From Gammaproteobacteria bacterium (GTDB taxonomy: Bacteria; Pseudomonadota; Gammaproteobacteria; UBA4575), in NCBI GenBank assembly GCA_022824965.1, contig JAJDYY010000003.1:21753-85752 (forward strand): DNA of 64,000 bases, given 5' to 3'. A program made the position numbers and the translations under genes. Every line of letters begins with the position of its first letter. The first letter of the stretch is position 1. The notes below the pieces were generated by a model. The model ran no database searches. It saw nothing but the letters and a program-made list of their open reading frames with translations, and was not told where the DNA came from. Below are positions 42,104 through 54,551 of the stretch, one piece after another.

Positions 42104-43129
42104 ATGACAGAAAACACCGTACAGACGCGCGATACCCTATCACGACCGGTCCGGGATCTCAGGATCTCGGTGACCGATCGCTGCAATTTCCGTTGCAGCT
42201 ACTGCATGCCCAAGGAAGTGTTCAACAGCCAGTATGAGTTCCTGCGCAGGTCGCAGCTGCTGAGTTTCGAGGAAATCACCCGGGTGGCAAGGATTTTCGC
42301 CTCGCAGGGAGTCCGGAAAATCCGCCTCACAGGAGGTGAGCCGCTGTTGCGCAAGAACCTGGCGGTGCTGATCAAACACTTGGCGAGCATTGATTCCATT
42401 CGGGATATCAGCCTGACGACCAACGGGGCACTGCTCACCAAAGACCGGGCCAGGCAACTCAAGAATGCGGGCTTGAGTCGTATCACGATCAGCCTGGACA
42501 CCCTGGATGCCGAGACCTTCAGGGCGATCAGCAACGCGAATTTCGGTCCGGACCTCGTGCTGCGGGGCATCGATGCAGCTGAGGCAGCGGGACTCGCGCC
42601 GGTCAAAGTCAACATGGTGGTGAAAAAAGGAGCCAATGAAGACTCCATCTTGCCCATGGCCCGGCATTTCCATGGTACCGGGCGGATCGTGCGCTTCATC
42701 GAGTACATGGATGTCGGACACACCAACCAATGGAACCTCGACGAGGTGTATACCGCAGCTGAGATTCTCAGCGACCTTCGCGGGGAGTTCGACCTGGAAC
42801 CGGGCGAGCCCAACTACCGGGGGGAAGTAGCCAGGCGCTGGCGCTACAAGGATGGCGGTGGGGAGGTCGGCATCATTGCCTCGGTGTCACAACCGTTTTG
42901 CCAAGACTGCACACGTGCGCGACTGTCTGCTGAGGGAAAGCTGTATACCTGCCTGTTTGCGACCCAGGGGCATGACCTGCGGCATCTGTTGCGCGAAGGC
43001 GCCGGTGACCAGTATATTGCGGATACAGTCAGGGGGGTCTGGTCAAAGCGCAATGATCGCTATTCGGAAACCCGAACACCGGAATCCCCCTTACTTCCCA
43101 AAATAGAAATGTCGTATATTGGTGGGTAG
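42104..43129 (+). CDS. moaA: GTP 3',8-cyclase
   Basis: CNFRCSYC radical-SAM motif, PFCQDCTRAR...LYTC second cluster and C-terminal SYIGG. Confidence 0.96.
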   Translation: MTENTVQTRDTLSRPVRDLRISVTDRCNFRCSYCMPKEVFNSQYEFLRRSQLLSFEEITRVARIFASQGVRKIRLTGGEPLLRKNLAVLIKHLASIDSIRDISLTTNGALLTKDRARQLKNAGLSRITISLDTLDAETFRAISNANFGPDLVLRGIDAAEAAGLAPVKVNMVVKKGANEDSILPMARHFHGTGRIVRFIEYMDVGHTNQWNLDEVYTAAEILSDLRGEFDLEPGEPNYRGEVARRWRYKDGGGEVGIIASVSQPFCQDCTRARLSAEGKLYTCLFATQGHDLRHLLREGAGDQYIADTVRGVWSKRNDRYSETRTPESPLLPKIEMSYIGG

Positions 43130-43244
43130 TGACCCTTGCATGCGGATCAACTGGACGCTTGGGTGCTGGACTTTGTTCTGGTTTCAAAGGTCAGGATCCG
43201 GCTTGATGGCGAGGTCTCAGTGGATTTCCGGCCGATGCAAACAG

Positions 43245-43318
43245 GGCCAGGTGGCAGAGTGATGATGCAGTGGCATGCAAAACCCTCTATACCGGTTCGA
43301 TTCCGGTCCTGCAGCTTG
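43245..43318 (+). pseudogene. degenerate tRNA-Cys(GCA)
   Basis: Clearly homologous to 52039-52112 with an identical T-arm, but acceptor GGCCAGG/CCTGCAG has 3 mismatches, anticodon stem GTGGC/ACCCT is broken, D-loop GG is GA, and there is no CCA. Confidence 0.85.
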
Positions 43319-43321
43319 CCA

Positions 43322-43409
43322 GCCCGGGTGGCGGAATTGGTAGACGCAAGGGACTTAAAATCCCTCGCCCATACAGGGTATGCCGGTTCGACTCCGGCCC
43401 CGGGCACCA
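43322..43409 (+). tRNA. tRNA-Leu(TAA)
   Basis: GCCCGGG/CCCGGGC acceptor, AGGGA-CTTAAAA-TCCCT anticodon arm, long variable arm, A73 and encoded CCA. Confidence 0.95.
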
Positions 43410-43530
43410 TTATTTGAACCATCCGATGACATCCGAAAACGTACACATAATAAAATAAGGGAATTGTGGACAACTTTCCACCTGTAAAGGTTCAGATACC
43501 TCTGGCACTTTTACGGTGATCGAATGAGGG

Positions 43531-43563
43531 GGTGCAGAGAGCGGCGTGGCCGCTCTCTGCACC
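43531..43563. other. perfect 15-bp hairpin downstream of tRNA-Leu
   Basis: GGTGCAGAGAGCGGC-GTG-GCCGCTCTCTGCACC; no U-tract on either side. Confidence 0.8.
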
Positions 43564-43674
43564 GGATCGGGTATCCTCCAGTGAACCAGCAAAGCCACTG
43601 GAACAGGAGACCCGAGCCTGCATATTGAATCGCTACGCATTCGATCCTGCAAGAGCTTCAGGGTAGACCCGCAG

Positions 43675-44181
43675 GTGCCGGCGTCTGTGAAGCTGCGCCT
43701 GAAGAAGCTGGAGGGCTTCGCGCGGCTTCGCGCCGCGGGCTGCAGCGAGGCCGGCGCCCTGGAGCAACTGGAGATCAGCCGGCGCACGCTGTATCGCTGG
43801 AAGGCCGCACTGGCCGGAGGCGGCCTGCAGGCCCTGGCGTTCCCGCTGCGCTCGGTCCAGGTGGACGGCACCAGCGAGTTCATGGCGGACTTCGAACAGG
43901 CCTGTCAGGACCTCAACCTCGCCCTGTATGTGCTGGTGCCCAGGCGCCCCCAGTACAAGGGCTGCGTGGAACGCACCAACCGCAGCGCCCGCATCGAGTT
44001 CCGGAGCCTGTACGACGGCCCCCTGCGCGTCGAACCGGTGCAGGCCGCACTGGCCGACGATGCGTTCTTCTATCACTACCAGCGACCGCATGCCGCACTC
44101 GACGATCCAACCCCCAACGAGTACCTTGTCCAGCTGGAGGCCGCCTGATCCCAGCAGTGCCATAGGTGCTGAACCCATATA
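43675..44181 (+). mobile_element. IS481-family transposase remnant with in-frame internal deletion, plus its right end
   Basis: HTH (ISRRTLYRWK...GLQAL) fused directly to the distal integrase core (FPLRSVQVDGTSEFM...GCVERTNR...RPHAAL); the central region including the first catalytic Asp is missing. Confidence 0.82.
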
Positions 44182-44192
44182 TGCCCCTTGAA

Positions 44193-44203
44193 GGGGGGGG
44201 GGG
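44193..44203 (+). repeat. G11 homopolymer upstream of the secreted hypothetical gene
   Basis: aaGGGGGGGGGGGattggca, ~50 bp upstream of the ATG at 44256. Confidence 0.85.
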
Positions 44204-44255
44204 ATTGGCATATACTTGGTTACAGGCGGTAACTATACCTAGAGAGGATACCACC

Positions 44256-44873
44256 ATGGGCAAACAAATTGTTTCAAGGATGTCCCTGTGTTCAGCAGAA
44301 GGCCTGCATTGTCAGGCAGTTGAAAGATTGGCTGATACTGAAAATCATTGTGTCCGAAGGATTACCGGGATACTGTGGGCCGCAGTCCTTGCCATATTCC
44401 TTTTCATTTCTGATGAGGCTTTCGCGTATGAGCAGTTCCGTGTAGGGGAAAATGAGTGGAAGAAGGTATCGTTCAGCCTGCCAAGCTATCCGCATGAGGC
44501 AAGACGATTTAAAAATGCGGGCTATGATGGTGTGAGATACAGTGTATGCTTGTCGGACGGGACTGCAACAGGGGTCGACTGGTCAGTCGTAGGATCAAAC
44601 ATTAGAGACTACTCCCGCTTGGAGGGCAAGGACTACGTAAGCGGATGCGGGTTTGTTTACACGGCAAAGAGCCGAGGCAGGTTCTCCAAGTGGTTTGAAT
44701 TTTATACGACTCCCCTCGATGACGCGGAAAAGGAAGGTGATGAATATTATTGGTTCTATTTCTCAAATCCCGAGGTGAAGCGGGCCGGGAGCAGTACATG
44801 GGAAAGCCACAGCGGGAGCCATCATGTACCGGCAACTATACGGGTACAGATTATCATTGAGGATAACGACTAG
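44256..44873 (+). CDS. hypothetical secreted protein
   Basis: RBS AGAGGA; hydrophobic stretch ending in AFA (signal peptidase I-like site); aromatic-rich mature domain with no family recognised. Confidence 0.7.
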   Translation: MGKQIVSRMSLCSAEGLHCQAVERLADTENHCVRRITGILWAAVLAIFLFISDEAFAYEQFRVGENEWKKVSFSLPSYPHEARRFKNAGYDGVRYSVCLSDGTATGVDWSVVGSNIRDYSRLEGKDYVSGCGFVYTAKSRGRFSKWFEFYTTPLDDAEKEGDEYYWFYFSNPEVKRAGSSTWESHSGSHHVPATIRVQIIIEDND

Positions 44874-45171
44874 GCTAACCACCCGGATGCTGCGGCCAGT
44901 GCACATTCTCTAGGGAGTCTACGCATGGAACTCAACGCGGCTAGTTCGAACAGATTGCGCCCTTGCTGCCCCGCCAGCGGGGCAATACTCATCTGTGGGG
45001 TCAGTTCCTTGGCAGTGAGGATATCAGGACCAGCCTTAAGGAGAGAACCATCATGAATGAACAAATTATCTCAAATCTCCCTCCCCATGTTCAGCACATC
45101 GTCAGGTAACTGGCAAGTCGCCGTGTGCTAAGGAGGGTGTAAACTGTGCTGCCCACCGGGTGTGTACTGTC

Positions 45172-46398
45172 TTATTCGCCCTGGAGCCCCGCAATCGGAT
45201 CAAGCCGTGAGGCTTGGTGCGCGGGCTGGAACCCGAAAAACAGCCCGACTGCGACAGCGGTGCCAAAACCGCTGGTCACGGATACCCCCGAAATGAGGAA
45301 GTTCCAGCCGGTGAATTGGCAGATTCCCCAAGTTACCACTAAGCCTAGCAGAATTCCGAGTACGCCACCTGCCATCGTCAGGATCAGGGATTCAATCAAG
45401 AACTGGCTCTGAATATCCTCGCGCTGGGCACCAAGAGCCCGGCGGATGGCAATTTCCCGGCGACGTTCTGCTACGGAAACGAGCATGATATTCATGATGC
45501 CGATCCCGCCGACAATCAGCGAGATGCTACCTACTGCCCCCAGCAGCAGGGTGAAAATACCCATCTGCGCCTCCATCTGTGCGATCAACTCCTTGGCAGA
45601 GAGAATGTCGAGACTTACCTGGGGAGAGCGGTCCTGAAAGAATGACTGGACATCTGCGACCGCCGCTGTGTGGTGGATGCCAGCGCGTGACCGGGCAATA
45701 ACGATGTCAATGTTTGCAGGAATGATGGCCCGTCTCGCGGTGGTGATGGGCACGAAAACTGCATTATTTGCCTCCACCTGGATCGGCAGTGCGTAGTTCT
45801 CAGTCGTGTGATTGAGCACGCCCACGACAGTGAACAACAGCCCGTTCACTTCAATGATCTGGCCTATCGGCTGGGTCTCTCCATTTTGACGCATCTTGTC
45901 TGCGATGCTGGCACCGATGACACAGAAAGAGCGATCGACATCGAGATCGGAAATGAATCTCCCTTCCCGAAGGGATAGCCGGTTTACAGCAGCGAACGAT
46001 TCAGTAACGCCCTGGATGCTGCCCCGCCCGACCTCTTTTCCAGCATGCCAGGACTCTCCATGGCTCTGGATCCTGGGTGCTGCCTCGGCAATCGACGGCA
46101 CTGCCGCTGCCAGTTCTGTCGCATCTTTTAGACTAATCTCAGTGGCATCCGAATTCATGAACTGGGGCGCTGTCCGGATCAGCATGACATCTGTACCCAG
46201 GGCTTCGAATTCCTTGCGGGCCTGCTCCCTGGCGATTTCTCCAAGCGAAACCATGGCAATGACTGAGGAAATACCAATCATGATGCCGATCAGGCCGAGA
46301 ATTGTGCGCAATCGTGCCCTGCGCAGGCTGCTGACTGCCTCCCGGGCATTGGCAGCCAGCACCGGGAGAAGCCTAGATCTAGCTATGAAATCTGTCAT
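45172..46398 (-). CDS. MacB/FtsX-type ABC transporter permease
   Basis: RTILGLIGIMIGISSVIAM, large periplasmic domain, VGGIGIMNIMLVSVAERRREIAIRRALGA and PAHQASRLDPI. Confidence 0.92.
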   Translation of the reverse strand: MTDFIARSRLLPVLAANAREAVSSLRRARLRTILGLIGIMIGISSVIAMVSLGEIAREQARKEFEALGTDVMLIRTAPQFMNSDATEISLKDATELAAAVPSIAEAAPRIQSHGESWHAGKEVGRGSIQGVTESFAAVNRLSLREGRFISDLDVDRSFCVIGASIADKMRQNGETQPIGQIIEVNGLLFTVVGVLNHTTENYALPIQVEANNAVFVPITTARRAIIPANIDIVIARSRAGIHHTAAVADVQSFFQDRSPQVSLDILSAKELIAQMEAQMGIFTLLLGAVGSISLIVGGIGIMNIMLVSVAERRREIAIRRALGAQREDIQSQFLIESLILTMAGGVLGILLGLVVTWGICQFTGWNFLISGVSVTSGFGTAVAVGLFFGFQPAHQASRLDPIAGLQGE

Positions 46399-47141
46399 CT
46401 TGGCAGGATTCCCTCTGGAGCATCTTCCGGTAAAGTTGCACCGGGGTCCTGTTCCTTCACCTCGAGGAGTTTTCCATCCCGAAGATGCAACTGTCGTATA
46501 CATTGGCGTGCAACCAGCGGGTCATGCGTGATGATCAGGATCGTGATCCCCTGTTCTGCATTCAGTTGCAGGAGCAGGTTCATTACTTCCCGGGCTGTCT
46601 CGGAGTCCAGCGCACCGGTCGGTTCATCGGCCAGCAAGAGTTCGGGTTCTCCTACCAGTGCCCGGGCAATAGCGACCCTTTGTTTCTGCCCACCAGAGAG
46701 CTGGCTCGGACGATGATTCATACGGTCGCTCATGCCGACCTGTTCCAGAAGTGCGCCTGCCCGGCGCTTCATCTCCGGGCTTCTGATACCCCGGTAGACC
46801 AGCGGTAGACAGACGTTCTCAAGGGCAGTCAGGTTTGCCAGCAGGTTGAAAGACTGAAATACGAACCCGATGTGCTGGTTCCGCAAGGCTGACAGGACGC
46901 TGTCATCGAGCTTGGAAACATCGCGCCCGTTGAGACAGCAGCTGCCCGAAGTCGGGCGGTCCAGCAGACCAATGATGTGCATGAGCGTGGACTTGCCGCT
47001 TCCCGAGGGCCCCATGACTGACAGCAGGTCACCTGCCTTGACCTCCAGGTCAATTTCTTGCAGGACCTCTGTGGTGACCGGCCCAATCGCATAGGACTTC
47101 TGGAGGCTTGCCAGGCGCAGCACGCACGGCTGGGCCGTCAT
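46395..47141 (-). CDS. MacB/LolD-type ABC ATP-binding protein
   Basis: GPSGSGKST, LSGGQKQRVAIARAL, LLADEPTGALD and ITHD. Confidence 0.94.
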   Translation of the reverse strand: MTAQPCVLRLASLQKSYAIGPVTTEVLQEIDLEVKAGDLLSVMGPSGSGKSTLMHIIGLLDRPTSGSCCLNGRDVSKLDDSVLSALRNQHIGFVFQSFNLLANLTALENVCLPLVYRGIRSPEMKRRAGALLEQVGMSDRMNHRPSQLSGGQKQRVAIARALVGEPELLLADEPTGALDSETAREVMNLLLQLNAEQGITILIITHDPLVARQCIRQLHLRDGKLLEVKEQDPGATLPEDAPEGILPR

Positions 47142-47208
47142 GCCGGGATCCCCACTGCCCACAGCGACAGTCCCTTACGGGGCTGGCTTGCATGATGCTG
47201 ACAGCCCT

Positions 47209-49044
47209 TCATGGAAGAACGATAGTTTCACCGAAGGAGAGCCCCGTCACGACCTCGACAGACTCCAGCGTAGTGAGGCCAAGCTCGACAGCGCGACGCT
47301 CTATTGCCTCGGTCTCCGGGTCAATGACGTGAATCCAGGCTTGGTCTGCCGATTGTTCCACTGCATGGATCGGAACCAGTACCGCCTCTGACTGGCTGTA
47401 CACGACGATCGTAACATGTGCAGACATTCCAACCCTTAGTCGGTCCAGGGCTTCTGCCGACAGCTTGTCCAGGGTCACGACGATCTCGAATTGCGGGGCA
47501 CTGCGCATCCCCGTACTTGCATTGGCCCGCGAGGAAACGCGAGTAACCGATCCCTCGAGCCTCAGATCAGGAAACCCGGGTCCCGTAATCCAGGCCTGCT
47601 GGCCAACCCGGACTTTTCTTACATCTGCCTCATCAATCTGGGTAGAAACCGAGACACTGCTGAAATCAGCAATTTGCAGCAGCAGCTCTCCCTGCGAGAG
47701 TGACCGGCCCCGTGCCAGAGGTTTTTGCCCGGACTCACCCGCAGTCGCCAGAACAACTCCAGAAATCGGTGCTCGAATCCGGGTCTGATCGAGCTTCGTC
47801 GCGTATGTGTGCAGCCGGTCTTGAGCATTCTGCGCTTCCAGTTCTGCGATTTGCTTTTCCTCCGGGCTGCCCTGTGCCTGGACGGTTACCAATTCCCGCT
47901 CAGCCTCCTCAAAATCCAGTTGCCGACTCTCACGCTGGCGCTGTGCCTCTTCATGCTCTGAAGCAGGGATAATCCCCTGCTTCAGCAGAAAAACGATCCG
48001 CTTGAAGTTCCGATCGGCATCATCAAGCCCCATTTTTGCCCGGCGCAGGGCCCGCCGTGCACGCGCCATTTCCGTACTGTTTTCCCAGTCTTCAATCTCG
48101 GCCAGCCGGTCACGGGCCTTGATATACTCAATTCTGGCCTGCCGGTGTTCCGCAGTGAGCCGACCGGTATCAAGGTCCACGAGCAAATCACCCTTTGTTA
48201 CCTGTTGCCCGAGAGCCGTATGTACCGCACTTACATGACTTTCGATTGGGCTGACAACCTCTACGACACGTCCCGGGACCAGATGTCCGCGCAGTGAAAT
48301 TGTGGAATCAAAGGCTCCAGCCTCCAAAGTCATCGTTTGCATGGTCCCCGGGGAACCTGGAAATCCTGGAAATCCTGGAAATCCTGGGAATCCCGGGACC
48401 CCTGGGTCCCCAACGATGAAGCCAGGAGCTAATTCCGGAGGAGGCTCCGGGTCAAGAGAATCCAGTGGTTGGATGTACCAGGTCCCGAAGGCAAGAAACA
48501 GGCTCAGGACAAAGACTACTGCGAGACTGCGTGCCGTCTGGATCTTCTTTGTCATCTGGGAGAGTGCCTCGTTACGGGTCTCGAGGTCACGGTATGCGGT
48601 TTGAAGCTCACCCAACTGCTTTTCAATGACCTTTTTCATGCGCAGCTCGGCTTCGTGCAGGTCCCGGATTTCAGTGATATCGGACACGACAGCGATCACG
48701 GCATCCCGCCTCTTTTCCCCACCGTGGACCGTAGTCAGATATGAAGTCACTACCGACAGGGAGCGGAGCTCTTCTCCGATGCGGACGCGGGCAATCTGCC
48801 GTTTGCCGTCTCCCTGCTCCATGATTACATCGAGAACAATCTGGACAAACTCGTCGAATTCTTCGAATGCAATGAAGAGTTCTCCAAAAAGATGGCCTGT
48901 TACCTCCTCGGGAGCGAGATCAAACATCTGGCAAAAAGCGGTGTTGGCGATCCGGACAGATCCGTCAAAATCAATGACCATCACGCCATCAGACAAGCTC
49001 TCGAGAAGAGTCTGGTAAAGATCCGGGTTGTGATCTTGTTTCAC
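47209..49044 (-). CDS. PAS-domain-fused periplasmic adaptor (membrane fusion protein, MacA/HlyD-like)
   Basis: Residues 1-125 PAS (LLESLSDGVMVIDFDG.V..AN.AF..MF...VVSDITE), then coiled coil, one TM helix, and lipoyl-hairpin-barrel MFP (GQQVTKGDLL, IRAPISGVV, IDEADV.KVRVGQ). Confidence 0.85.
   Translation of the reverse strand: MKQDHNPDLYQTLLESLSDGVMVIDFDGSVRIANTAFCQMFDLAPEEVTGHLFGELFIAFEEFDEFVQIVLDVIMEQGDGKRQIARVRIGEELRSLSVVTSYLTTVHGGEKRRDAVIAVVSDITEIRDLHEAELRMKKVIEKQLGELQTAYRDLETRNEALSQMTKKIQTARSLAVVFVLSLFLAFGTWYIQPLDSLDPEPPPELAPGFIVGDPGVPGFPGFPGFPGFPGSPGTMQTMTLEAGAFDSTISLRGHLVPGRVVEVVSPIESHVSAVHTALGQQVTKGDLLVDLDTGRLTAEHRQARIEYIKARDRLAEIEDWENSTEMARARRALRRAKMGLDDADRNFKRIVFLLKQGIIPASEHEEAQRQRESRQLDFEEAERELVTVQAQGSPEEKQIAELEAQNAQDRLHTYATKLDQTRIRAPISGVVLATAGESGQKPLARGRSLSQGELLLQIADFSSVSVSTQIDEADVRKVRVGQQAWITGPGFPDLRLEGSVTRVSSRANASTGMRSAPQFEIVVTLDKLSAEALDRLRVGMSAHVTIVVYSQSEAVLVPIHAVEQSADQAWIHVIDPETEAIERRAVELGLTTLESVEVVTGLSFGETIVLP
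48346..48411 (-). repeat. Gly-X-Pro repeat (GDPGVPGFPGFPGFPGFPGSPG) with three exact 9-bp units
   Basis: cctggaaat x3 plus cctgggaat on the + strand at 48356-48391. Confidence 0.9.
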
Positions 49045-50468
49045 TGGAATTCTTCCTCGATCCGGATGCCCCAGAGATCAAGTGTTCGACCCGAGCTCTG
49101 GTCAAGCCGTGTCCGTGCCTCCAGGTAATTGATGATCGTATCAACCTCAGACTGTTCAGCGTTGACCAGCGCGTCTTCAGCAGCTGACACCTCGAAAGAA
49201 GAGGCCAGGCCCTGGCCGAACTTTTTCTTTTCAATCACCAGGTTTTCTGCAGCCAGCTCGCGTGCATCGCGGGCCATCTCGATCAGGCGAAGTCCAACTT
49301 CGACATCGTTAACAGCCCGGCGGATTTCAATACCAATCGACTCGCGCAACTCGGCCAGGCCTCTTCGAGCTTGGCGTAACCTGTTTCCGGCTGACAGGCG
49401 GTTGAGGTTATCTGTCCGGTCGGTCAGGGGAAAGGTGGCGTCCATCTGTACCCGGGTGTCTGTGTCCCCACTGTCATCACGGTTCCAGGAAACTCCCAGT
49501 GACAGGTCCGGCAGCAAGTCATTTTGTGCCACCTCCACGGCGATCTGGGCAAGATCGATTTGCAGTTGGGCTTGGAGGAAGTCAGGGCGACGACGCAACA
49601 CTTCTTCAAGCACGGGGTTCTGGTCCCCTTGTCGATATTTCACTTCTAGCTCATCCAAGGGTTGAATCTGGATTGTACTGTCCAGTTCCAGGATACCGAT
49701 CAGATTGAAGTTCGCAATGTCCAGGCGATTGCGTGCCTGGGTTAGTGCCAGCTCGCGGTTGGCGACAGTTGCTTCGGAGCGTACAGCTTCCCTTTGTGCC
49801 ACGCGCCCTGCGTAAATCAGGGCCTGGGTTGCTTTTAACTGTTCCCGTGCGCGGCGCAGCGATGCCTCTCCGATCTCTACCTGCTGAGCCGCTGCAATCA
49901 GTGCCCGGTATGATCCGGACACCTGGACGATCAGATCCTCCACTGCCTTGCGCAGGGAGAGGATATGAATCTGGTCCTGGATCTGGTCTTGACGGAATGA
50001 TGCTGTCTCGATACCTGTCCAAGCCCCTTTCAGCAGTGGCTGGGAGAAGCTTAGGGTCTGCGATCCGGAGTCCTCGAACTTGTCGGAGAGGGTTTCCTCC
50101 CACCGCAAAACAAATTGGCCACCAGTATGGACGCGCAAGTTTGTCTCGGCACCTACTCCCGCCTTGCGGTCCTGTCGATCTGTGCTGGCAAAAGGCTGCA
50201 CGGTGAACTGGGGAACCCATCGGTCGCCAGCGACATCAAGGGCAAATTTCTGTACCTCCCGGTCAGAACGCTGGTTGATGAGTGGTCGATTGTACTCCAG
50301 CGCACGCTTGACTGCGTCTTTCAGTGTCAGCTTGAGTGTGCTGGAAGGCAGGACAGAGGGCGAGCTTGCCAACACAGACACTGGGGCAAACAAGAAAACC
50401 ATAGCCCAGAGGCAGACAAAAAACGACCTGACCCTGAACATCTGCTCCAAGCTACTCTCTTTCAACAC
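49041..50468 (-). CDS. TolC-family outer membrane efflux protein
   Basis: Signal peptide, LTLKDAVKRALEYN, SQPLLKG, LPDLSL and helical repeats; first gene of the exporter operon. Confidence 0.85.
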   Translation of the reverse strand: MLKESSLEQMFRVRSFFVCLWAMVFLFAPVSVLASSPSVLPSSTLKLTLKDAVKRALEYNRPLINQRSDREVQKFALDVAGDRWVPQFTVQPFASTDRQDRKAGVGAETNLRVHTGGQFVLRWEETLSDKFEDSGSQTLSFSQPLLKGAWTGIETASFRQDQIQDQIHILSLRKAVEDLIVQVSGSYRALIAAAQQVEIGEASLRRAREQLKATQALIYAGRVAQREAVRSEATVANRELALTQARNRLDIANFNLIGILELDSTIQIQPLDELEVKYRQGDQNPVLEEVLRRRPDFLQAQLQIDLAQIAVEVAQNDLLPDLSLGVSWNRDDSGDTDTRVQMDATFPLTDRTDNLNRLSAGNRLRQARRGLAELRESIGIEIRRAVNDVEVGLRLIEMARDARELAAENLVIEKKKFGQGLASSFEVSAAEDALVNAEQSEVDTIINYLEARTRLDQSSGRTLDLWGIRIEEEFQ

Positions 50469-50635
50469 CAGTTGGTCAAGTGATTCACCGCCACTCGCTG
50501 CTGCGCAGTTGCCATTTCCCTTGCATCAGATCATCCAAACCCGTCTTTACTTCAGGTTGTCGTTACAGTTGCAGTCAGCGCAACCACAGGCCTGATCTTA
50601 TACTCATCATGCTTCTTCTGTAGCTTGGGAACAGC

Positions 50636-50666
50636 AAGTAGTACAGCCAATAGGGCTGTACTACTT
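50636..50666. promoter_or_regulatory. 13-bp perfect inverted repeat upstream of the TolC operon (operator or terminator candidate)
   Basis: AAGTAGTACAGCC-AATAG-GGCTGTACTACTT. Confidence 0.55.
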
Positions 50667-51059
50667 CCAGTTGGCACCACGTCACTGAGCCTGATATTAG
50701 CATTTAACCAACACCAAGTTTAGAGATAGGCCGAGTTTTGGAAGATTGTGGATGCACGATTTCTGATGGCAGCAGAAAGAGTGAAGAATGTGCGAGACTG
50801 GTTGGAAGTCTGACTGCCACTGATTCCATCATCCATAACAGACATCCAGACCCTGTACCTTGATACTCCGCTACCCCACCGCCCACTTCACCATCACTTT
50901 GGGATTGGATAACGCTGATGTAAAAACTCAAGGGCCTTGGAGTACTACACGAGCTTTCAAAATACCAGTATCCCAACAAGGTCCAGCCCCTGGGACCCGG
51001 ATGCTGTCTGCATGCGGGCAGTTGCCCGCATGCCTTGAGTCCTGTCTGCTGATCCTGCC

Positions 51060-51482
51060 CTAGAACTGCATGCCCAGGTTCAGGGCAGCGGAGAGGGCCT
51101 GGCTGTCGGTATCCAGGGCCTGTCGGGCCGATACGGTGGTTTCGAGGATCCAGGGCCCTTTCTGCCATCCGGCCCCCAGGCCAAGGATGGCACCGGTATC
51201 CTGCGTGCTGGCCCGCAGGCGGGTGCCAGAGACTTCTGCCGTAGTATCCGTACCCCTGATGTGATGCTCCAGGTGCACTGAGGCCCGTAACGAGAGCTCT
51301 CCACCGCCTGCACTTCGTGCGCTGTCGGTGGCAATGCCCAGGGCTACACTGGAACGGTCCTCGTCCGAAAAGGAGACATCGGCCTGTACCGTATCGGTAA
51401 AGCGGTCAATACTCACCTGGGTATGGGAAAGACGGATATGCGGAATCCAGTGTATCCGGGATCCCATCCGGTGTCCTGCCTC
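51060..51482 (-). pseudogene. C-terminal fragment of an autotransporter-type beta-barrel, truncated at an IS end
   Basis: EAGHRM...IPHIRLSHTQVSIDRFTD...alternating beta-strands...ALNLGMQF (terminal Phe); the reading frame runs up to the IS junction. Confidence 0.72.
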
Positions 51483-51563
51483 TGTATGGGTTCAGCTCCT
51501 ATGGCACTGTAGGGATCAGGCGGTCTCCAGTTGGACAAGGTACTCGTTTGGGGCTTGGTAGTC
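51483..51563 (-). mobile_element. IS481-family right end (inverted copy of 44101-44181)
   Basis: Reverse complement encodes DYQAPNEYLVQLETA* and ends ...GAACCCATACA; 60 of the terminal 66 nt match the left element. Confidence 0.85.
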
Positions 51564-51565
51564 GG

Positions 51566-51928
51566 GCGCTGATCCGTCGGCAGTACGACATTGAGCCAGC
51601 TGCACCTAATTACAGAGGAGGGACAGCTGAGCGTCAGCGCTATGCAGATGGAGGGGATGAAATTGATATTATTGCTTCTGTACCGCAACCGTTTTGGCAT
51701 CAATACACCCGTGCAAGACCTTCAGCCGAGGGAGAGAAGATATACAATTGCCTTTTTGTATTACAGGGTCAGGACTTGTGGTGCCTGTTGCGTCAGGGCG
51801 ATGGAGACAAGATATATTTCGGAGGCATGAAAATGGTCTGGGAAAAGAGATCCAGTCACTATTCGGAAATTCACACATCAGAAATACCTATGCTCAAAGA
51901 ATAGAAATGTCCTAATATTGGCGGGTAA
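51566..51928 (+). pseudogene. moaA: decayed 3' fragment of moaA
   Basis: YDIEPAAPNYRGG...IIASVPQPFWHQYTRARPSAEGEKIYNCLF aligns to the MoaA C-terminus; two of the three C-terminal cluster Cys are lost and there is a frameshift just before the final SYIGG. Confidence 0.88.
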
Positions 51929-52038
51929 CGAGTGCTGTGTCTGGGATGCTTATTCTTGATGCTGGTCACGAAGAATTATTTTTCTTGGGTACTGAATCCA
52001 AGTCGCAAAAAGAATATTGTTGTTTTATTGTTGTACAA

Positions 52039-52112
52039 GGCTAGGTGGCAGAGTGGTGATGCAGCGGCCTGCAAAGCCGTCTATACCGGTTCGATTCCGG
52101 TCCTAGCCTCAA
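52039..52112 (+). tRNA. tRNA-Cys(GCA)
   Basis: GGCTAGG/CCTAGCC acceptor, GCGGC-CTGCAAA-GCCGT anticodon arm, canonical T-arm and U73; 3' end reads CAA rather than CCA. Confidence 0.88.
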
Positions 52113-52133
52113 TTTGGACTGACTCATTTATCG

Positions 52134-52219
52134 GTCGGGGTGGCGGAATTGGTAGACACAAGGGACTTAAAATCCCCCGCCCGCATAGGGCATGCCGGTT
52201 CGATTCCGGCCCCGGACCA
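52134..52219 (+). pseudogene. degenerate tRNA-Leu(TAA)
   Basis: Homologous to 43322-43409 but with a G.G mismatch or 2-nt deletion in the acceptor (GTCGGGG/CCCGGAC), C.A in the D-stem, A.C in the anticodon stem, and no properly placed A73-CCA. Confidence 0.75.
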
Positions 52220-52270
52220 GTTGTACCGTCCTACAACACCTAGAAAACTCATCCATATAGCATGATGAAA

Positions 52271-52587
52271 TTAGCGTTTTGCGAAAACTTTGCCATTTTG
52301 TGTCTGAACCTGGACAAAAAGCACATCTTCCTTGAGGCTATACAAATTCTTGTGTATCTCTTTTAGGGAATATGGTACGGTAGGCGCGGTGGTTAGAAAT
52401 CTCTGAAGCACTGAGAAGCAAACCAGAGGATCCAGAAGGAGCAATAACAACATAAATCACTTCTGAACATGAACCACCCGCCAGCGTGCGAAGTATTTGG
52501 CAAGCCCTTTCTCCTCTAGTTGGGTTATAAACTAAAACAAAACGCCAAAGCGGACGCGCAAATAACGGCAATGATCAACCCGTCCAT
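52271..52587 (-). pseudogene. possible heavily decayed bamE/smpA
   Basis: Divergent from fur, the usual bamE position; MDGLIIAVICASALAFCFSL* resembles a lipoprotein leader; the remainder is AT-rich with stops. Confidence 0.3.
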
Positions 52588-52699
52588 CGTGGCGGGTTTT
52601 GTTTTTTATTGGTACACTGCAAGGGTGCGTTTCGCCTGACAAGTGCATGGCGCGCGCTCCTCATTAAAATGATCTTTTTGGTATAGCAAGGGGCTCTTA

Positions 52700-53116
52700 A
52701 TGGAAGACCAAGATCTTAAACGAGCCGGCCTCAAGGTCACAATTTCCAGGATGAAGATTCTGGAACTCCTTGAAAACTCTGATAAAAGGCACATGAGTGC
52801 CGAAGACATCTACAAGGCACTGTTGGATGTCGGGAAAGAAATCGGCCTTGCGACCATCTACCGGGTGCTCACGCAGTTCGAGGCCGCCGGCCTGGTGATC
52901 CGCCATCACTTCGAAGGTGGACAGGCCGTGTTTGAACTGGAGCGGGGCCACCACCATGATCACCTGATCTGCGTGAAGTGCGGCAAGATCGTTGAATTCG
53001 TCGACGAGTCGATCGAAGCCAAGCAAGAAAAGATCGCCGAGGAAAACGGCTTCAAAATCTCGGATCACTCGTTGATCATCTACGGGGTATGCAGCAAAGA
53101 AAACTGCCAGCAATGA
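52700..53116 (+). CDS. fur: ferric uptake regulator
   Basis: LKRAGLKVT..R.KILE, HMSAEDIY, GLATIYRVLTQFE and HHDHLIC..CG. Confidence 0.96.
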   Translation: MEDQDLKRAGLKVTISRMKILELLENSDKRHMSAEDIYKALLDVGKEIGLATIYRVLTQFEAAGLVIRHHFEGGQAVFELERGHHHDHLICVKCGKIVEFVDESIEAKQEKIAEENGFKISDHSLIIYGVCSKENCQQ

Positions 53117-53192
53117 GCCCGCCTGGATTCCCCGTTTCCTGAAATCGAACGCCGACCCCCCCTCCGGAAAAACGGTTTCGAATTTTTCGCTT

Positions 53193-54551
53193 ATGTCCGA
53201 TCCAGTCTTCCCCCCTGGCCCGTCCGGCAACGGCAAGCTGGGCTGCCTGCCTGAAATGCGCCAAAACCCCATGACCTTTCTGCAGGACGTGGCCGAAGAG
53301 TACGGCGGCATCGCCCGCATCAACATGGGGGCGTACTGCTCCTACCTGGTCTCGGAACCGAGGTTGATCAAGGAGGTGCTGGTTGACCATTACGACAAGT
53401 ACAAGAAGAACACCCGCTACAAGCAGGTCCGGATGGTCATCGGCGAGGGCATGCTGCTGAGCGAGGGGATGATCTGGAAGGAGCAGCGCACCCGGGCCCA
53501 GCCCAAATTCACGGCCAAGGCACTGAATGCCCAGCTGGACTGGATCTCGAAACTCGCGGCCAAGTTCATCGATGCCTGGCAGGCACCTGCCCGAGCTGGC
53601 GACCCGATCGAGCTTGAGTACCAGTTCAACCTGCTGACGCAGTTGCTGGCCGGAGTCTGGGTGATGGGCCGGGGGTTTCAGAAGCGGGCTGCCACGGTAG
53701 CCGGCATCTACCACCAGATCCGCATGAACTGGCCGGAAATGACCGATCTCAGGGCCAGCCTGCTGCGCCCCAAAAACCTGAGGAAAGCCGTCAATTTCAG
53801 GCTTGCACTGCGGGAACTGGACCGCTGCATATACGAGTTGCTGGACGAATATCCCTCCATCATGCAGGACGACATCGGTTTCCTGAAGCATCTGCTTGAA
53901 GAGGGCGAGGCCCCGGAAAAACAGATCAGGCAAAACCGGCGCAGCCTCCGGGACCAAGTCCTGACGCTTTTCGTGACCGCGTTCGAGACGACCGCGACCT
54001 CGCTGTGCTGGACCCTGTACGTGATTGACCGCTACCCCGAGGTCAAGCGGCGCATCCGGGAAGAAATGGACTCGGTGCTCGATGGCGGGGAGCTGACCCC
54101 GGAGCAGCTCAGCCGGCTGGAGTACACCGAGAAGGTCGTCAAGGAATCCCTGCGGTTGTATTCATCGGTACACTCGTTCTCGCGGGTGGCGCTGCAGGAC
54201 CACCTGATCGGCGGCTACCGGGTCCCCAGGGACACGACGGTCATCATTTCCTCGTATGTAACTCATCGCCTTGCGCAGTACTGGGAGGATCCGGAGCGCT
54301 TTGATCCGGAGCGCTTTGACAAGGCGCGCTCGGTCGGTCGGTCACGGTTTGCCTACATCCCCTTTGCTGCCGGTCACCGCAACTGCATCGGCTCCTACAT
54401 GGCGCTCATGCAGAGCAAGCTGGTCGTCGCGCTGATCATGCAACGCTACGATCTGTCGCTGGTGCCCGGTCATGTCGTAGAACCACAGGCGGCCACCACC
54501 ATGCGTCCTAGGTACGGGATGAAAATGAATATCAGCCGCCTGGTCGGCTGA
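53193..54551 (+). CDS. cytochrome P450
   Basis: ExxR (ESLR), PERF and heme motif FAAGHRNCIG; I-helix reads TAFETT. Confidence 0.93.
   Translation: MSDPVFPPGPSGNGKLGCLPEMRQNPMTFLQDVAEEYGGIARINMGAYCSYLVSEPRLIKEVLVDHYDKYKKNTRYKQVRMVIGEGMLLSEGMIWKEQRTRAQPKFTAKALNAQLDWISKLAAKFIDAWQAPARAGDPIELEYQFNLLTQLLAGVWVMGRGFQKRAATVAGIYHQIRMNWPEMTDLRASLLRPKNLRKAVNFRLALRELDRCIYELLDEYPSIMQDDIGFLKHLLEEGEAPEKQIRQNRRSLRDQVLTLFVTAFETTATSLCWTLYVIDRYPEVKRRIREEMDSVLDGGELTPEQLSRLEYTEKVVKESLRLYSSVHSFSRVALQDHLIGGYRVPRDTTVIISSYVTHRLAQYWEDPERFDPERFDKARSVGRSRFAYIPFAAGHRNCIGSYMALMQSKLVVALIMQRYDLSLVPGHVVEPQAATTMRPRYGMKMNISRLVG

Follow-up and report, generated by a model that had tools for sequence, protein, structure and literature searches.

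Duplicated modules can come to depend on each other by losing different parts, and accessory DNA can become tied to a host through its tRNA genes. For the former, duplication-degeneration-complementation, or reciprocal gene loss after duplication, is reportedly the model of Force and Lynch. For the latter, deletion of pathogenicity island II of uropathogenic Escherichia coli 536 at leuX, via the flanking repeats of the island, damages the tRNA gene, and in Sinorhizobium meliloti the megaplasmid pSymB carries the sole copy of tRNA-Arg(CCG) together with engA. The locus described here, in a 64-kb window (the whole stretch of contig JAJDYY010000003.1 that was analysed) of a gammaproteobacterial genome, hereafter G000, touches on both themes. 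In this window a block made up of the 3′ end of moaA, tRNA-Cys(GCA) and tRNA-Leu(UAA) stands on either side of an island with a four-gene exporter, and the two copies of the block are damaged in different components.

A first-pass annotation of this sequence had taken the second block for a duplicate, subfunctionalised such that the island was potentially locked in place and the acquired DNA thereby stabilised. The reading favoured here, at a probability of about 0.68, is more modest, in that neutral complementary degeneration would have followed a probable import of the second block, with a real but minor stabilising side effect and no adaptation. A literature search for the concept found no precedent among the papers that it covered.

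The duplicated moaA-Cys-Leu block

The block occurs twice in direct orientation, at 42779-43409 and at 51572-52219 (all positions are those of the window, and the features are collected in Table 1), with a start-to-start spacing of 8794-8812 nt. The directly oriented duplication some 8.8 kb apart that was claimed at first pass is thus borne out, both by alignment and by a repeat finder. The likeness of the copies varies along their length. A full alignment of the moaA portion, covering the last 117 codons, gives ca 65 % identity with indels, the repeat finder pairs 43241-43310 with 52035-52104 (90 %) and 43326-43403 with 52138-52215 (91 %), and the two spacers between moaA and tRNA-Cys cannot be aligned with each other (z about -1).

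The length of ~620 bp initially ascribed to the duplication is real and far beyond that of an att core, but it understates the original extent. This is evident from G003, a 1.97-Mb contig (OZ244850.1) from a separate assembly, annotated as a Gammaproteobacteria metagenome-assembled genome (MAG), in which the pseudogene of moaA extends back to residue 82. This pseudogene bears an internal deletion, and the piece in question corresponds to MoaA residues 82-140 (E 2e-17); a non-significant hint of the radical-SAM Cys motif adjoins the start of the gene for the outer-membrane efflux protein (OEP). In G000, a profile search for the N-terminus of the pseudo-moaA was non-significant (E 1.3). Judged from these remnants, the second copy measured at least 1.1 kb at first, and it may have been a whole module.

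The intact moaA of the left block has orthologues in the genus that are 85-88 % identical, and its upstream neighbour is the same as in relatives. In the dead copy of the right block, two Cys residues of the conserved C-terminal Cys motif, as placed by alignment, have become Trp and Tyr. At the far side of the locus, the downstream flank is one that trails a single tRNA-Leu within ~30 nt in G001 and within ~900 nt in G010, both members of the genus. As a separate observation, the 3′ half of the working moaA (42315-43129) is 83-84 % identical to that of G003, as against ~91 % for the 5′ half and the neighbouring genes, and of all terminal branches in the moaA tree that of G000 is the longest. 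The low identity of this half may reflect a recombination tract or relaxed constraint.

Condition of the four tRNA genes

The tRNA genes were scored with Infernal against the Rfam model RF00005, for which the gathering threshold is 29 bits, and were also sought with ARAGORN, which calls three in the region, namely two for Leu(UAA), at 43322-43409 and 52133-52219, and one for Cys(GCA), at 52039-52110. The left tRNA-Cys is dead. Its alignment is limited to model positions 4-67, the anticodon stem has two broken pairs, and a deletion of apparently ~5 nt has removed the 3′ acceptor strand to leave the junction CCTG|CAGCTTGCC; the remainder bears T4C and five more substitutions. The left tRNA-Leu is identical in G000 and G003, and the right tRNA-Cys has the same sequence as the Cys body found unchanged in all 12 genus genomes.

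The right tRNA-Leu is full length but degraded. It contains non-canonical pairs at 4:69, 11:24 and 27:43, amounting among others to mismatches of G-G in the acceptor stem and of C-A in the short D stem, and its discriminator is C73 instead of A73. In E. coli, A73 is the main identity element for LeuRS. The positions altered in this copy (G24, U43 and A73) are invariant in all working copies of the genus. Indeed, the working Leu(UAA) genes of the genus retain every stem pair as well as A73, with the acceptor pair in G004, another member of the genus, being kept through a compensatory change. Given that the Cys body is likewise invariant, the lesions of both suspect copies sit on positions that are otherwise strictly maintained. 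To judge from its stems and discriminator, the right tRNA-Leu is likely broken, and both degraded copies are predicted to be non-functional in the cell. The reciprocal decay described at first pass therefore holds, with the left tRNA-Cys dead, the right moaA wrecked and the right tRNA-Leu degraded and likely broken.

Whether such damage matters depends on what else the genome contains. The G000 assembly comprises 1.735 Mb in 8 contigs, with a GC content of 57 % and a completeness of 97.6 %. The whole-genome ARAGORN scan finds 40 tRNA genes, including one for Cys and two for Leu(UAA), all of them in the moaA-Cys-Leu locus, with no further Cys or Leu(UAA) tRNA in the assembled genome. This bears out the first-pass reasoning, in which each of the two tRNAs has a single working gene. 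Both blocks would therefore be indispensable, since no other tRNA serves the Cys codons or UUA. The UUA codon is rare, at 1.9 per 1000 codons, yet is present in 225 of the 509 open reading frames (ORFs) of at least 400 codons (44 %). The same scan also reports a tRNA-Ala(CGC) at C2:583-678 which, at 96 nt and with its anticodon at position 36, is unusually long for that tRNA.

Consequences for loss of the island

The longest identical runs shared by the two repeats are of 25 nt, in the T-arm of tRNA-Cys, and of 20 and 18 nt, in tRNA-Leu; upstream, no run exceeds 13 nt. A crossover in the 25-nt run retains all point lesions of the left tRNA-Cys, and one in tRNA-Leu retains the dead tRNA-Cys as a whole, such that all RecA-type crossovers in runs of recombination length would lose the only working tRNA-Cys. 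The crossover logic of the first-pass annotation is, in this respect, correct. A crossover upstream of the Cys lesions would leave the degraded right tRNA-Leu as the sole reader of UUA. The death of the left tRNA-Cys alone blocks all realistic crossovers, and the decay of the right tRNA-Leu is relevant only to identical stretches of 11-13 nt.

The barrier is nevertheless a narrow one. Recombination from repeat to repeat is very unlikely in any case, the repeats being 70-90 nt long and 90 % identical. Moreover, deletions within 43410-51570 would do no harm, and several indels of this sort separate G000 from G003. The description of the island as non-excisable is accordingly sound for homologous recombination between the repeats but does not extend to internal deletions of this kind.

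The island carries an exporter of the MacAB-TolC tripartite ABC type, with permease, ATPase, HlyD-family adaptor and outer-membrane factor encoded by four adjacent, co-oriented ORFs. In three of the four genes the change between G000 and G003 at third codon positions is 4-12 times that at second positions; for MacB, the divergence at positions 1, 2 and 3 is 0.029, 0.007 and 0.088. Since third positions diverge far more than second positions, the cargo genes are evidently kept by selection, and their usefulness explains the persistence of the island such that a lock is not needed for its retention. The claim that the lock stabilises acquired DNA is therefore overstated, with the cargo under purifying selection and with G004 faring without the island.

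No recombinase domain was found by Pfam in any island ORF, in keeping with the earlier statement that the island lacks an integrase; the four P4-type integrase matches of G000 all lie outside it, adjoining other tRNA genes. Two of these four genes (C7:166735-168021 and C7:137989-139272), beside tRNA-Leu(GAG) and tRNA-Met, contain an in-frame TAA and probably mark decaying islands.

Relatives and the origin of the second block

Most of the other 12 species in the genus have the order moaA, Cys, Leu. In G003 the locus reads moaA, dead Cys, Leu, exporter island (95 % identity), pseudo-moaA, intact Cys, a 16-kb integrase island, Leu and the native flank. Its dead tRNA-Cys has the same junction as that of G000, with fewer additional substitutions, and its downstream tRNA-Leu has two 1-nt deletions, in the anticodon stem and the acceptor stem, that are distinct from the lesions in G000. 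From the shared Cys junction and the different Leu lesions, it follows that tRNA-Cys was inactivated once and that decay of the downstream tRNA-Leu continued independently in each lineage. The same state is thus found in a second species, with a common dead Cys and independent Leu lesions, but in no other instance. Among 56 genomes of the family only G003 has it, scans of metagenomes by pattern and by protein gave no further instance, and the island is absent from G004 and nine other members of the genus. The empty-site comparison called for at first pass is supplied by G004, which has a single moaA-Cys-Leu and no island.

Over 20 kb of core sequence, G003 and G004 each share 89-91 % identity with G000. 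The third-position divergence between G000 and G003 is 19-26 % in four flanking genes and 3-11 % in the island. Either the island moved between the lineages of G000 and G003 after their split, together with the dead tRNA-Cys, or G004 lost it.

What then is the source of the second block? The left spacer shows a clear relationship, with z values of up to 13, to those of G007, G002, G010 and G004, and the right spacer has no match among the 12 genus genomes, nor with the left spacer. The GC content of the right block is ~45 %, against 57 % for the genome. In the moaA tree, the pseudo-moaA lies on a branch of 0.54 within an inner subclade of the genus (support 96/99), apart from the left copies. 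In the light of spacer, GC content and tree, a recent tandem duplicate is not supported. The right block looks foreign, and probably came with the exporter by recombination at a conserved tRNA hotspot.

In the pseudo-moaA, the substitutions that separate G000 from G003 number 11, 11 and 8 for the first, second and third codon positions, an even spread from which it is concluded that it evolves neutrally. Compared with the working moaA, it shows a third-position excess on top of ~25 % second-position differences, a pattern that points to a gene that once worked elsewhere and decayed later. The right tRNA genes, for their part, show signs of occupying the native position: the trailer TCAA of the right tRNA-Cys is common to G004, and the variable arm of the downstream tRNA-Leu of G003 is identical to that of G004. 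On the simplest reading of these features, the native portion would consist of moaA with its spacer, the 3′ side of the right tRNA genes and the downstream flank, and the exporter, the second moaA and the second spacer would be imported. The joints would then presumably lie within the conserved tRNA genes, where a circular piece integrating through one crossover should leave them.

The proposed course of events may be put together as follows. The ancestral order of this genus, whose genomes are small, is moaA, tRNA-Cys, tRNA-Leu(UAA) and the downstream flank, with both tRNA genes serving as landing sites for islands. DNA from a related, unsampled lineage, bearing a MacB/HlyD/TolC-type exporter operon beside its own moaA-Cys-Leu, would have entered through homologous recombination within the highly conserved tRNA genes, most probably a circle taken up by a single crossover, to give two moaA-Cys-Leu modules with the exporter between them. 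The sequence itself shows that redundancy was then resolved by complementary degeneration, with death of the moaA that came in, loss of the 3′ acceptor strand from the left tRNA-Cys, and, in the right tRNA-Leu, a gain of stem mismatches and loss of the A73 discriminator. Such an arrangement would forbid loss of the island by repeat-mediated deletion, most likely as a by-product of neutral decay. The island is retained mainly through selection for the exporter and the want of an integrase or att sites.

Alternative explanations

Several points weigh against the above. G004, as close to G000 as G003 is, has a single moaA-Cys-Leu followed by different cargo and no island, which must either have been lost there or never have been fixed. 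With p values of 0.07 and 0.23, the approximately unbiased (AU) test does not reject a grouping in which the pseudo-moaA joins the left copies, and an old duplication in place thus keeps a share of the probability. The circle with a single crossover is a step that we infer. The right tRNA-Leu exceeds the Rfam threshold and is called by ARAGORN, though with irregular geometry, and on such scores could retain some function. It is also formally possible that an extra tRNA copy lies in a gap of the assembly, given its 8 contigs and its completeness of 97.6 %. Some of these points lead directly to other explanations. An old tandem duplication within the lineage, with the exporter inserted later between the copies and no foreign donor, would accord both with the AU result and with the place of the pseudo-moaA inside the genus subclade. 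It is unlikely, albeit of some weight, since the right spacer is unrelated to the native type even though the pseudo-moaA is still ~65-70 % identical to moaA, since the pseudo-moaA runs up to the exporter operon, which suggests one contiguous imported piece, and since the island is missing from the equally related G004 as well as from nine other members of the genus. Rather doubtful, too, is the notion that the right tRNA-Leu still works, in which case only tRNA-Cys would be asymmetric, there would be no reciprocal dependence, and the left tRNA-Leu would be a spare. The 37 bits of the right copy do stand above the 29-bit threshold, and a 27:43 mismatch is of a kind that some tRNAs tolerate. 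Nonetheless, the copy scores 22 bits below the left tRNA-Leu, has mismatches in both the acceptor stem and the short D stem, lacks an A73 that working copies of the genus keep with the other affected positions, and has as its orthologue in G003 a gene with two frame-breaking deletions.

A stronger version of the first-pass proposal would make complementary tRNA decay a selected, toxin-free addiction device and the very reason for which the island persists. Such a device would make sense of an arrangement kept in two species ~10 % diverged, of an island that, at 95 % identity against 89-91 % for the core, may have spread ready-made with the dead left tRNA-Cys, and of the fact that every feasible crossover is lethal. 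It is very improbable nonetheless, in that recombination between repeats so short and so diverged would be infrequent, deletions inside the island are unprevented and have occurred, the cargo is under ordinary purifying selection, G004 lives without the island, and no further instance appears in family genomes or metagenomes. A related and improbable idea is that dead Cys, Leu, exporter, dead moaA and Cys together form a pre-locked cassette, spreading between species by recombination in the invariant tRNA genes and replacing an intact Cys-Leu pair with a split one. The lower divergence of the island than of the core between G000 and G003 (95 % as against ~90 % identity), along with their common Cys deletion, is as this idea predicts. 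If true, the cassette would on arrival be unremovable by the same recombination, a recombinase-free and toxin-free means of holding essential tRNAs hostage. The chance, lastly, that the repeat is an artefact of assembly, be it a strain chimera or a misjoin at repeated tRNA genes, is close to nil. The genome is a draft of 8 contigs, and the contigs of a Logan k-mer assembly of the short reads SRR16351696, found through look-ups with moaA and the cytochrome P450, break inside both copies of tRNA-Leu, such that they support the sequence and not the linkage. They are, however, 100 % identical to the left block up to 43351 and to the right block from 52147, and include the pseudo-Cys lesions and most of those in the right tRNA-Leu. 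The copies, at 65-90 % identity, are too different for an assembler to confuse, and the separate 1.97-Mb contig of G003 repeats this order together with the same dead tRNA-Cys and a 95 %-identical island. Neutral complementary degeneration after a probable import is therefore retained as the preferred reading.

Three mechanisms of insertion were also tried and rejected. A composite transposon with IS481-like ends is contradicted by the lack of both IS pieces at the G003 locus, where the same cargo is 95 % identical. An integrase island bounded by attL and attR is at odds with an island that has no recombinase and with repeats, at 65-90 % identity, that span moaA, the spacer and two whole tRNA genes. 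In terms of what defines integrase islands, there is neither a terminal recombinase gene nor a pair of short repeats of the tRNA 3′ end at this locus, though the use of a tRNA gene as integration site is seen in relatives. A model like that of prophage e14, with the right block native, is disfavoured, as the native-type spacer is the left one and not the right.

Other features of the island and of related loci

The exporter island of the first-pass annotation does contain a four-gene exporter, but the segments at 43483-44185 and 50832-51570 are later junk found only in G000; the parts common to G000 and G003 are 44186-44889 and 45151-50831. A mechanically called ORF at 44166-44873 is not a gene, its substitutions being even over codon positions. 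No intact copy of the IS481-like element exists in the G000 genome, which has remnants only. The corresponding element of G012 (L033 2178-3360) encodes a 361-aa transposase with rve_3 and HTH_32 domains and is present in more than 20 copies.

Table 1. Features of the locus in window coordinates
Feature	Position	Strand	Remarks
Intact moaA	42104-43129	+	341 aa; radical-SAM and Mob_synth_C (Pfam); native copy
Native-type moaA-Cys spacer	43130-43244	+	Similar to spacers of G007, G002, G010 and G004, z 2-13
Left pseudo-tRNA-Cys	43245-43311	+	27.6 bits, below 29-bit threshold; no ARAGORN call
Left tRNA-Leu(UAA), working copy	43322-43409	+	59.3 bits, full length, clean; CCA end encoded
IS481-like remnant with internal deletion	43483-44185	+	G000-specific; 80 % identical to multi-copy G012 element
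Shared non-coding segment	44186-44889		95 % identical to G003; no Pfam match
MacB-type permease	45172-46503	-	MacB_PCD and FtsX domains (Pfam); purifying selection
ABC ATPase	46395-47162	-	ABC_tran (Pfam); 98 % identical to G003
Membrane-fusion protein (HlyD), N-terminal PAS	47209-49044	-	HlyD_D23/HlyD_3 (Pfam)
Outer-membrane efflux protein (OEP/TolC-like)	49041-50468	-	OEP (Pfam)
Dead moaA, first surviving piece	50780-50831	+	About residues 82-99, ~50 nt; collinear with G003 piece
G000-specific junk splitting pseudo-moaA	50832-51570		Autotransporter fragment and inverted IS end
Autotransporter beta-domain fragment	51060-51467	-	~70 % identical to C3:87951-88132, just outside window
End of IS481-like element, 93 nt	51479-51571	inverted	G000-specific
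Pseudo-moaA, 3′ part	51572-51928	+	Residues 225-341; in-frame TAG, frameshifts, GC ~45 %
Right moaA-Cys spacer	51929-52038	+	Unlike that of any of 12 genus genomes (z <=3); 85 % identical to G003 right spacer
Right tRNA-Cys(GCA)	52039-52110	+	65.3 bits, full length, clean; only working Cys copy of the genome
Right tRNA-Leu(UAA), degraded	52134-52218	+	37.0 bits, full length (Infernal)
Native downstream flank	52345-54551	+	Fur-like gene and cytochrome P450

Exact-protein look-ups found neither the island OEP nor the island MacB protein on record. The adaptor has a PAS domain (Pfam PAS, PAS_4, PAS_8 and PAS_9) that is unusual for MacA-type adaptors. A scan of genome contigs with this PAS-HlyD protein returned G003 and homologues of 58-59 % identity in a Paracoccaceae MAG and a Ca. 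Porisulfidus MAG, neither beside moaA nor beside tRNA genes, and no donor.

The same two tRNA genes carry other insertions in relatives. P4-type integrases lie beside tRNA-Cys in G003 and beside tRNA-Leu in G012, and G009 and G008 have 3-kb inserts between the two genes. Among the genes of the 16-kb island of G003 (L038 923-5415 and L032 3500-19700), which sits at the 3′ end of the right tRNA-Cys, are one for a P4-type integrase, another that is integrase-like and one for a C5 cytosine methylase, besides several large ORFs; a repeat of the Cys 3′ end precedes the downstream tRNA-Leu. In several genus genomes, tRNA-Cys or tRNA-Leu is followed by a motif resembling TTGAAC(C/T)NTC(C/T)GA...TCCG(A/G)A(A/G)AAATCC, with sites in the window at 43410-43440, 52111-52132 and 52220-52250 and others in L004, L022, L026 and L034. 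It looks like the left end or the arm sites of a family of P4-integrase islands that uses both tRNA genes.

Comparison with known systems

If the degraded copies are truly dead, the locus would be a clean natural case, in a bacterium, of complementary degeneration in essential tRNA genes, with the side effect that both flanks of an acquired island are individually indispensable. It would also suggest a route by which islands at tRNA hotspots become fixed without decay of an integrase and without addiction toxins. The practical weight of this is modest, since the barrier covers only one route of deletion, and one that is already rare. The arrangement is of simple design and could be tested in a laboratory strain.

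The finding combines known kinds of event, complementary loss after duplication and islands at tRNA hotspots, and involves no new mechanism. As in duplication-degeneration-complementation, a module is duplicated, different parts are disabled in each copy, both copies are needed and no new function arises. Indeed, the lesions are complementary and fall in different components, with no other copy supplying either function. The parts here, however, are separate genes, two tRNAs and one enzyme, instead of sub-functions of one gene, and one copy is probably foreign, with an effect on the stability of the DNA in between. With integrase islands of the Islander type and their tandem arrays, the locus shares a tRNA hotspot, direct repeats containing tRNA sequence, and P4-type islands of relatives at both tRNA genes. 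It differs from such islands in having no integrase, in that each repeat is a whole gene block, diverged and no shorter than 1.1 kb, where such islands have a 3′ tRNA core, and in that the flanking tRNA genes are full copies which have decayed in complementary fashion.

Loss of the island would carry a tRNA cost, as it does for island II of E. coli 536, but the tRNA affected there is non-essential and deletions are both common and viable, whereas here the sole tRNA-Cys is at stake. The parallel with pSymB is that accessory DNA becomes indispensable through a tie to the sole copy of a tRNA gene, though there by translocation and for a whole replicon, and here by complementary decay of duplicates around a chromosomal island. 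As with e14 in the icd gene of E. coli, where icdC is the pseudogene, the insert is bracketed by a working end of a host gene and a dead duplicate. In that instance the prophage brings the replacement end and the host end decays, whereas here the working moaA and its spacer are native, the dead copy looks foreign, and the duplicate also holds two tRNA genes.

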